Part shown: positions 45,001-47,074 of the stretch, piece after piece
How the letters are laid out: every line of letters starts with the position of its first letter
How positions within the stretch are numbered: position 1 is the stretch's first letter
Assembly (NCBI RefSeq): GCF_988243305.1
Contig: NZ_OZ547136.1
Length of the DNA stretch: 64,000 nucleotides
Reading direction: 5' to 3' (one strand)
Position numbers: made by a program

Positions 45001-47074
45001 AGCTGGCCAGAATTAAGTTTCCCTGGATCTCATGCTGATATTGGTGGCGGCTATGACCCACTGGAAGATGAGTACCTGTTTTTAAGTCGCCCGGCGATTG
45101 CAACGGTACTGGGAAATGTGCCGGTGGAAGCGACAAGCGCTTACCAAAAAGCAGCACAGCAGGCAGAGTTATTGTGGCGCTATTCGACGCTGGCTCCGAT
45201 TCTGCCTTCTGGTGTCCTAAAAATTGAATCCAATATTGATGAAATAGCGTCGCCTGACCACTTAGGTAATGTGAGAAAACGGGTCGCTGCAGCGGTGACA
45301 TTTCGCAGAACGATCACCAATGACTGGTCAAAGATTGCGTTAAGAGTAATGTATGAAGTCGCTAAAGAGGCAGGGGTAGTATTTGATGCCATTTCTGTTG
45401 CTGATAAGGAATTAAAAGTTCCCAGTCATTTAAAGGTAATATGTGAAAAAGCAATTTCTCAGGGTAAAGCCGTTCTCTTGTGTACAGCGCCGATACCTTT
45501 TTCTGATGATGAGCTTAAAACCATTGGAAAATATATACACTGCTCTTCCAACTGGAATACCGTCGATTATCGATTAAAAAATAAGGTGTCTGCTGAAGTA
45601 TCAGCGTTTAAGACGTTTAGTTTTGTTAATCGGCCGGATGAAAATTGGACCAGAACTATATACGATATGCAAGGGAATAAACAAAATGGAATTTAATATA
45701 AAATTACTGTTTGTTATTACGTCTATGGTTCTTAACTTTAACGCAGCAGCGAAAGAAAAAATATCGTTGCTTGCACCCTATGATGAGTGGTATTTCAATT
45801 TTTTCTACCCTGATTCCCTACCAGCAAAAGTTACCTATGTGGAATTATTAGATACCGATGGCATCTATTATCAGTTCAGAACGCTGGCCAGTACTAATGC
45901 CAGTCCAGGAAGTGTTGGACAATGGAGCGAGAAAGTATCAGGGATGTCGTCAGTTTTTAATAAAGCCAAAAACCCACCAATGTCTATCCATTTTTGCTGG
46001 GATTCAGTGATTGATAAAAAAGTGTATGAAACCTGGATAACGCTGGCGGGAGACGTCTGGAAATTGATGCTCACACCTTATTCACCACCAGGCGATGGCA
46101 GTGAAAAATATTATCTACAGTATCTGTTAATCGGACTGGCTCCGGAAGGAAAAGTACGGGTATGGCTTGATAAACGTGACAAACCCAATATTCGCCTGAC
46201 GGATAAGCAGATTCTGATAGAAACGTTTTCAGGTGAAAAAATGGAAATGTGTAAAGGAATTTCCCGGCATGATTTTTCTCTTGGAGACGATGAATATGTT
46301 CTTGAGTTTATCAAAGATAAAAAATATCCCTATGGTAACTGGTAAGTAACAATGAAAATAATAGCTAAAATAATTTATAGATTAACCATTGCGTTAATGA
46401 TAGCCGGATCAGTCCAGACAGCAGCGAAAGAAAAAATATCGTTGCTTGCACCCTATGATGAGTGGTATTTCCTTTTTTTCTACCCTAATGCGCTACCGGC
46501 ACGAGTTACCTATGTAGAACTATTGGACACTGATGGTATCTATTATCAGTTCAGAACGCTGGATGCTACCGCTCCGAGTTCCACAACTATTGATCAATGG
46601 AGAGATAATCTTCGGGTTGGGGTGTTATCATTCAATAAAGCTAAAAATCCCCCTATGTCTATCCATTTCTGCTGGGATTCAGTGATTGATAAAAAAGTGT
46701 ATGAAACCTGGATCACGCTGGCGGGAAAAGTCTGGAAATTGATGCTAACACCTTATTCACCACCAGGTGGTGGCAGTGAAAAGTATTATCTGCGGTATCT
46801 GTTAATCGGGCTGGCTCCGGAAGGGAAAATAGGAGTGTGGCTGGAGAAACCTGATAAACCCAATATTCGCCTGACCGATAAGCAGATTCTGATAGAAACG
46901 GTTTCAGGTGAAAAAATGGAAATGTGTAAAGGCCGAAGTGTCTATAAAAATGGGTATTCTTACCCGGAAAGTACAAAAAACTTTATCAAAGATAAAAAAT
47001 ATCCCTATGGCAACTGGTAGTTAACCAGTTGCACAATTTCTTAAAGAGGCACGGAAAAGCATTTTTGTGGGTTA

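Follow-up and report, generated by a model that had tools for sequence, protein, structure and literature searches.

A 64,000-nucleotide (nt) stretch of contig NZ_OZ547136.1 (RefSeq assembly GCF_988243305.1; here called the window) carries an operon that encodes an Hcp-Tle1 fusion effector, a predicted phospholipase toxin of a type VI secretion system (T6SS), and two tandem Tli1-type immunity proteins, I1 and I2. The immunity proteins are close paralogs that differ sharply in two short blocks, and the second of these (block 2) probably reads a hypervariable region (HVR) of the toxin and so sets the toxin allele that is neutralized. The components of the operon are listed below, with amino acid (aa) positions referring to the respective protein.

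43693..45696, + strand: Hcp-Tle1 fusion effector, 667 aa, Hcp-ET2 architecture; matches TIGR03344, Pfam and 6SJL_D
45379..45525, + strand: effector HVR, aa 563-611, X-type in the window; peak of the covariation scan, with a drop in nucleotide identity
45686..46345, + strand: I1, DUF2931/Tli1-family immunity gene, ATG start, 219 aa, block-1 class a, block-2 class X
45686..45751, + strand: I1 Sec-type signal peptide, aa 1-22, with core LLFVITSMVL and cleavage context AAA/KEK (sequence inspection)
45887..45955, + strand: I1 variable block 1, aa 68-90, class a; compared with I2, 17% identical in aa and 49% in nt
46259..46306, + strand: I1 variable block 2, aa 192-207, class X, right after the conserved Cys189; 12% aa and 25% nt identity to I2
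46352..47020, + strand: I2, DUF2931/Tli1-family immunity gene, ATG start, 222 aa, block-1 class b, block-2 class Y
46562..46630, + strand: I2 variable block 1, aa 71-93, class b
46934..46981, + strand: I2 variable block 2, aa 195-210, class Y

The toxin, its immunity proteins and their variable blocks

The effector begins with an Hcp/TssD domain (aa 1-149; TIGR03344, 125 bits against a cutoff of 58.9; also Pfam T6SS_HCP, PF05638), and its C-terminal part matches Pfam T6SS_Tle1-like_cat (PF09994; DUF2235 phospholipase). Residues 173-661 align with Tle1 of enteroaggregative Escherichia coli (EAEC; PDB 6SJL_D) with an E value of 6e-123. The catalytic motifs GxSxG, FxGxxD and ExxxPGxxxDIG are intact and are represented by GFSRG (332), FLGIFD (377) and ELSFPGSHADIG (440).

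A preliminary description of this DNA had proposed a family check of the downstream proteins, with Tli1/DUF3304-like as one option. Membership of the Tli1 immunity family holds, but the domain is DUF2931 (PF11153; E=2.9e-27 over aa 30-197 of I1); the Pfam scan of I1 gave DUF2931 alone, with no DUF3304 domain. A family-profile hidden Markov model matched both copies at about 1e-112 or better (I2, 2e-114), both are named 'DUF2931 family protein' in RefSeq, and neither matched an NCBIfam model, including that of Tli1-EAEC. Wherever DNA upstream of a related locus was available, the DUF2931 genes directly follow a Tle1 gene or what remains of one, which bears out the suggested link to toxin loci. 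DUF2931 proteins have been validated experimentally as Tle1 immunity proteins in Aeromonas hydrophila (PMC7245790) and Vibrio cholerae (PMC10395195), as has the DUF2931 protein Tli1 of EAEC (PMC13133936). The ATG of I1 (45686), with AAGGGA upstream, overlaps the effector stop codon (45694-45696) by 11 nt, as noted previously, and 6 nt separate the I1 stop from the I2 start.

Both copies carry Sec-type leaders, in I2 a hydrophobic core followed by TAA/KEK (an AXA-type site by sequence inspection). The sole cysteines are at positions 104 and 189 in I1 and 107 and 192 in I2; because no Cys precedes residue 104 or 107, there is no lipobox, in agreement with the preliminary description. With Sec leaders that lack an LTGC lipobox, I1 and I2 are probably soluble periplasmic proteins rather than outer membrane lipoproteins. 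The start of I2-type genes differs among RefSeq records: an internal Met16 start (window position 46397) gives a 624-nt gene without a signal peptide (WP_369775152.1 and WP_059323208.1), and the upstream ATG (46352) gives a 669-nt gene (WP_046617336.1 and WP_000704501.1) that keeps the Sec leader and the constant 6-nt spacing to the previous stop.

I1 and I2 are 72% identical overall and align without gaps after the leader. Over the 197 columns of the mature part, 33 of 39 positions differ within the blocks versus 12 of 158 elsewhere (Fisher p=1.7e-21), corresponding to 15% identity within the blocks and 92.4% outside, and this clustering was equalled by none of 5000 shuffles. The earlier view of the tandem genes at 45686-47020 as near-identical copies with two sharply divergent blocks is therefore correct; the signal peptides form a third divergent stretch (23% identity). 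Pairwise alignment and substitution rates along the genes, which had been proposed as a check, gave a synonymous divergence (dS) of 0.36 and a nonsynonymous divergence (dN) of 0.04 for the scaffold outside the blocks, which is therefore under purifying selection, and scaffold tracts with zero synonymous change suggest gene conversion. The corresponding values for the blocks are about 1.1 (dS) and about 1.3 (dN), and the nucleotide sequences there read as either saturated or unrelated. Given this synonymous saturation and the nucleotide identity of 25-49%, the block divergence did not arise through a few adaptive point mutations after duplication. The patches, first taken as divergence between duplicates, are instead old recombining cassettes.

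An AlphaFold2 (AF2) model of I1 built with 37 homologs is mainly beta, with a mean predicted local distance difference test score (pLDDT) of 76.6, a predicted template modeling score (pTM) of 0.76 and a low-confidence helix at the N terminus. Block 1 falls in a long loop (residues 74-91; pLDDT about 60) and block 2 in a loop plus short helix (residues 186-209; pLDDT about 70) directly after Cys189. Cys104 and Cys189 are invariant in the 37 sequences, so that a disulfide between them is plausible. Each block has length variants within the family, as would be expected of loops rather than of a buried core. That the blocks are surface patches is suggested by the loop assignment in this medium-confidence model and by the tolerance of indels. 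Foldseek returned no PDB neighbors of the I1 model with an E value of ≤0.001, and no solved DUF2931 chain was found by sequence.

Loop cassettes and covariation with the toxin

At this site, five further E. coli loci have one, two, three or four DUF2931 genes after a near-identical effector. Their block 1 occurs as class a, b or c and their block 2 as class X or Y, in the combinations a+X, a+Y, b+X, b+Y and c+Y. Recognizably the same block versions, in all combinations, are present in homologs from Salmonella, Salmonella bongori, Enterobacter hormaechei, Kluyvera-like and other genomes. The sample comprised 28 loci of species-representative genomes together with loci fetched by protein identity (numbered with the prefix L), and classes were assigned by sequence motifs, some of them by eye. 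In this sample, block 2 forms three deep classes: X (..SDFSYGYDxD..), Y (..F[SP]xGYxYxxxT..) and Z (..HPxGYxYYG[DE]TP..). Class X is found across Enterobacterales. The block-1 classes (a versus b/c) are common to Escherichia and Salmonella, with class a found in Salmonella too. Any block-2 class can sit on one scaffold; three Cedecea-type loci, for instance, share an identical block 1 and have X, Z or Y as block 2. As judged from these alignments, the blocks are ancient, discrete, recombining loop cassettes whose classes are common to several genera. A diversity-generating retroelement or hypermutation as their source was ruled out because the classes are few and discrete. Class a occupies the first gene in six of eight E. 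coli Hcp-ET2 loci inspected; strain A20 (bY) departs from this, as does Escherichia whittamii.

Reshuffling of the cassettes is visible among loci of the sequence type 131 (ST131) kind. No difference separates L002 from L003 (100% identity) until block 2 of the first immunity gene is reached, and the crossover behind this is therefore very recent. Identical duplicates occur within both arrays (second and fourth immunity genes of L002; second and third of L003), and the arrays of L002, L003, L004 and L005 evidently differ through recent unequal crossovers. In L025 (an uncultured Cedecea sp.; 6655-7988), short open reading frames matching a Tle1 fragment of ~110 residues and DUF2931 genes alternate, which looks like duplication of a unit that takes in the 3' end of the toxin gene.

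Block-2 classes covary with the toxin HVR in five lineages. The toxin alignment was scanned in sliding 12-residue segments for association with the block-2 class that the first immunity gene carries (30 unique pairs). The maximum fell at toxin aa 565-576 and was reached in 2 of 500 label permutations (maximum statistic), which control only partly for phylogeny; a second peak lies at aa 582-593. The nearest neighbor by HVR had the same class in the first immunity gene at a frequency of 0.60-0.69, compared with 0.33 under the null and 0.31 for the nearest neighbor by toxin backbone (P≤0.004). Within Escherichia, nearly all substitutions between the X-type effector (window and ST131 type) and the Y-type effector (strains EC28 and A20 and E. 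whittamii) fall in aa 563-611.

Sliding nucleotide comparisons localize the exchange. In Cedecea (X/Y/Z), Salmonella (X versus Y), E. hormaechei (X versus Y) and the window versus E. whittamii, there are just two sites of low nucleotide identity (about 50-65%): one is the toxin HVR, and the other is block 2 in the first immunity gene. An X-versus-X control had no sharp drop. These comparisons bear on the proposal that the covariation reflects physical linkage or cotransfer of the toxin 3' end with the immunity gene, with no functional interface. The two variable sites are only about 0.85 kb apart, and the permutation tests ignore shared ancestry, which speaks for linkage. The ~750 nt between the sites, however, stay 90-100% identical in all four comparisons while both flanking sites drop, and since transfer as one segment would have altered the middle too, linkage is a very improbable explanation.

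The proposed recognition of the HVR by block 2 was also examined out of sample, at VgrG-linked, lipoprotein-type Tle1/Tli1 loci of the EAEC kind in four strains. The HVR of the solved EAEC Tle1 (PIRQTNTEL) carries the X-type motif, and an X-class Tli1 was therefore predicted for EAEC. The outcomes were as follows.

Strain 55989: HVR-X (same as in the solved structure); Tli1 array [X,Z]; match
Strain O22:H8 154: HVR-Z (PIDPKNPDM); Tli1 array [Z]; match
Strain OkiPb01677: HVR-Z (same as in 154); Tli1 array [Z,Z,X]; match
Strain 48: HVR-Z; single X copy; mismatch

Besides strain 48 and the partial control for phylogeny, several results weigh against the assignment of specificity to block 2 and the HVR. 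In an all-versus-all scan corrected for backbone, block 2 and the HVR were reciprocal best partners, but their correlation (r~0.42) was below the family-wise 95% null of 0.454. (The same scan on residual identity without backbone correction was dominated by conserved-motif artifacts and was discarded.) There is overlap between the X and Z motifs of the toxin in some taxa, e.g., Salmonella salamae L039. An AF2 model in which a GS linker joined the Tle1 domain to mature I1 (paired alignment of 15 rows) had a mean pLDDT of 53.8 and a pTM of 0.35, too poor for an interface to be seen. Block 1 had no significant partner in the effector in the all-versus-all scan (best window, aa 357-368; r=0.30), and no effector column separates class-a from class-b loci. 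In the E. coli population, no X copy is present in at least 25 genomes with HVR-X, and some X-type toxins of the ST131 kind stand before arrays with aY as the only class-a combination and no X copy (L003, [aY,bY,bY]; L004, [aY]).

A second part of the effector is dimorphic in E. coli, with two alleles that differ at aa 248-266 and at aa 308-325 (44614-44670). The first patch is as follows.

44434..44490, + strand: effector dimorphic patch r0, aa 248-266, two E. coli alleles

The alleles of this patch reassort freely with the HVR, with all four combinations represented by the window, ST131, EC28 and A20. These combinations contradict a pairing of the patch with block 1, which had been considered, and no partner for the patch was found in the immunity proteins.

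Immunity arrays in E. coli and competing explanations

Of 5426 complete E. coli genomes, 573 carry the Hcp-ET2 island, in all cases on the chromosome and with one to four immunity copies; an island with ≥99% identity to that of the window occurs in a single genome of the 5426 and is thus a rare allele. The toxin HVR is X-type (window-like) in 560 of the 573 and Y-type (E. whittamii-like) in 13. At least one X-class block-2 copy is present in 535 genomes (93%) and at least one Y-class copy in 571 (99.7%), with totals of 660 X and 1103 Y copies. The Y class of I2 matches, by correlation, the Y-type HVR of those 13 E. coli genomes and of E. whittamii, in which the neighboring immunity genes belong to class Y. 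In EC28, a Y-type toxin is followed by [aY,bX], the exact reciprocal of the window, where an X-type toxin is followed by [aX,bY], and this arrangement supports the reading of block 2 as part of an immunity arsenal. The arsenal proposed in the preliminary description is thus supported for block 2, by the HVR covariation, the EC28 reciprocal and the two toxin alleles, and not for block 1, which has no detectable toxin partner.

We infer binding, its interface and a division of labor between the copies as follows. The Hcp-Tle1 phospholipase would be fired by a T6SS encoded elsewhere; no T6SS core genes were found in the window. I1 and I2 would be exported by Sec, remain soluble in the periplasm without a lipid anchor and bind there the phospholipase domain of incoming or self-delivered Tle1. 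The conserved beta-rich scaffold may provide a common docking surface, and the block-2 loop would contact the HVR and set allele specificity. I1 (class X) is the predicted cognate of the window's own X-type effector and would cover the cell against it, and I2 (class Y) is a predicted guard that would prearm the cell against the Y-type allele of other Escherichia. Unequal crossing-over and gene conversion among tandem copies, together with recombination between strains, could generate new combinations and change copy number.

An alternative is that the copies are redundant, the arrays being by-products of unequal crossing-over or a matter of dosage and the blocks mutation-tolerant loops without a role in specificity. 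The variation from one to four copies behind the same effector, the identical duplicates in L002 and L003, the four tli1 copies of Klebsiella pneumoniae at 94% nucleotide identity (PMC5649205) and the persistence of mismatched arrays would all fit redundancy. It is nevertheless an unlikely explanation: the block classes are few, discrete and conserved within class across genera, with no continuum; they are predicted by the toxin HVR and not by backbone phylogeny; and X and Y copies are kept in 93% and 99.7% of genomes, respectively. In V. cholerae, moreover, the toxin is not bound by a Tli1 paralog of 80% identity (PMC10395195), evidence of narrow specificity in the DUF2931 Tli1 family.

In many loci of the ST131 type, a+Y comes first after an X-type toxin. 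In ST131 clade C, tssM is disrupted by an insertion sequence (tssM::ISEc12; PMC10711316), and if those ST131-type strains belong to clade C, this disruption could relax the need for self-immunity. Immunity genes also persist beside decayed toxins. In Escherichia sp. MOD1-EC7003 (L011), an internal deletion has left only toxin residues 1-19 and 615-667 before the immunity gene, and in the bat isolate E. coli A20 (L051), the toxin has an internal stop and the second immunity gene is frameshifted; such retention fits a defensive value of the immunity genes on their own. Elsewhere, S. bongori (L047) has similarity to the toxin but no called gene, and E. hormaechei L041 has a 691-nt gap where L042 has its first immunity gene.

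Two further explanations concern the role of I2. Both proteins might be needed together, as in A. hydrophila, where protection required both DUF2931 genes, Tli1 and Tli2 (PMC7245790). Single-copy arrays are common beside intact effectors, however (L004, L007, L015, L016, L018-L020, L024, L026, L030, L039 and L054), and Tli1 alone is enough in EAEC (PMC13133936), which makes two-component immunity quite improbable here. To a similar degree, it is doubtful that I2 serves a second Tle1-type effector elsewhere in the genome, e.g., a VgrG-linked DUF2235 effector in a T6SS-1 cluster. ST131 T6SS-1 clusters do have a DUF2235 effector downstream of vgrG (PMC10711316), but at the VgrG-linked Tle1 loci that were examined, tli1 genes of their own stand adjacent, Tli1 of the EAEC type shares only 44-46% identity with I1 and I2, and class Y of I2 has a real counterpart among the alleles of the same Hcp-Tle1 gene.

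Recognition of the HVR by block 2 remains the favored explanation for the operon, and a wider form of it can be put forward more tentatively, at somewhat less than even chances. The specificity code of DUF2931 Tli1 proteins would be a short, swappable C-terminal loop cassette in three ancient classes, each pairing with one version of the ~50-residue Tle1 HVR; the code would be common to Hcp-fused and VgrG-loaded Tle1 across Enterobacterales, kept by balancing selection and reshuffled in tandem arrays. Block 1 and toxin aa 248-266 would perhaps be further layers, as yet unpaired. As weapons, Tle1/Tli1 pairs are widespread among gut Enterobacterales, ST131 and EAEC included, and the class structure reduces the question of which Tli1 blocks which Tle1 to a 16-residue loop in proteins that are otherwise 92% identical. 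If the code is correct, genome sequence would allow strain-level prediction of who kills whom, and the system would be a clean example of toxin-immunity codiversification through cassette exchange and not point mutation.

Related systems and genomic setting

In polymorphic toxin systems, toxin and immunity protein codiversify at a small interface, and recombination shuffles modules. Orphan immunity arrays, in which a cell has surplus immunity genes but not the cognate toxin, occur in T6SS, contact-dependent inhibition and Rhs systems and are comparable to the specificity regions of colicin immunity. The window copies differ from typical orphan arrays, which involve whole-gene replacements, in that they are close paralogs distinguished by the exchange of short loop cassettes.

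The locus itself is of known kinds (an Hcp-ET2-type effector, DUF2931 Tli1 immunity and a tandem or orphan array) and is ordinary for the field. An N-terminal Hcp joined to a DUF2235/Tle1 phospholipase and followed by an immunity gene corresponds, by description, to Hcp-ET2/ETi2 of enterotoxigenic E. coli PE321, and Hcp-ET2 is reported (Ma et al. 2017, as summarized in two reviews) as a T6SS-dependent antibacterial effector with ETi2 as its immunity protein (PMC6730261, PMC6099711).

The closest validated counterpart is Tle1-EAEC/Tli1-EAEC of T6SS-1 (PDB 6SJL/6SKI, Tle1-VgrG1), whose toxin domain is homologous. Tli1-EAEC is likewise a DUF2931 protein and has in common with I1 and I2 the scaffold motifs, the two conserved Cys residues and the C-terminal motif FIKDKxYPYGNW. 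In both systems the immunity gene lies directly downstream, tli1 occurs in tandem copies and X and Z block-2 classes pair with toxin HVR types. Several features differ: the window toxin is fused to Hcp, whereas Tle1 of EAEC is loaded on VgrG; Tli1-EAEC is an outer membrane lipoprotein with an LLTGC lipobox, unlike I1 and I2 with their Sec leaders; sequence identity is low, with no NCBIfam match; and the window island lies outside any T6SS cluster.

Several DUF2931 genes also stand beside a Tle1 in K. pneumoniae HS11286, A. hydrophila NJ-35 and V. cholerae. The specificity determinants were not located in those studies, in contrast to the cassette classes and HVR partner proposed here, and the authors of the V. 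cholerae work state that the residues behind Tli1 specificity remain to be determined (PMC10395195). Tli1a of Pseudomonas aeruginosa also neutralizes a Tle1-family phospholipase, and in its AlphaFold3 model a prominent loop makes most of the contacts, outside the catalytic pocket (PMC13133936). Unlike I1 and I2, this protein belongs to DUF3304, a different fold family, is a lipoprotein and acts on an only distantly related Tle1. Neither a three-class loop cassette nor its pairing with a defined toxin segment was found in the literature searched; the specificity code is apparently undescribed and is a moderately interesting lead.

The effector and immunity genes form a low-GC island (0.34-0.46 versus ~0.55 in the flanks) between ybbP and mnmH. 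The island is probably one operon that runs from a promoter-like site to a terminator-like hairpin, both found by consensus scans.

43588..43617, + strand: promoter-like site TTAAAA-18-TATAAT, 5' of the operon; weak, from a consensus scan only, with a site count not above that of shuffles
47010..47032, + strand: terminator-like hairpin with a T-rich tail, which overlaps the I2 stop; from a consensus scan, stem of 9 bp (5 of them GC pairs), function inferred

In K-12 MG1655, the RhsD element (rhsD, ybbC and the pseudogenes ylbH, ybbD and ylbI) occupies exactly the same ybbP/mnmH junction (window 43525-47071), and the junction therefore seems to be a hot spot for toxin/immunity islands of the T6SS type. 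In a related enterobacterial genome (L006) and in S. salamae L039, the Hcp-Tle1 island likewise lies next to selU, whereas in Salmonella enterica it is found between kdp/ybfA and phr.

Farther upstream, a 20.8-kb gene for the giant adhesin siiEA (BapA related) lies beside cueR, at about 8,000-29,000 of the window as placed by correspondence with NZ_CP148331.1 (1,674,656-1,695,433). It is accompanied by type I secretion genes for an HlyD adaptor, an ABC permease/ATPase and a TolC-family protein. Between ybbJ and cueR are a YadA-family autotransporter adhesin gene and small hypothetical genes.

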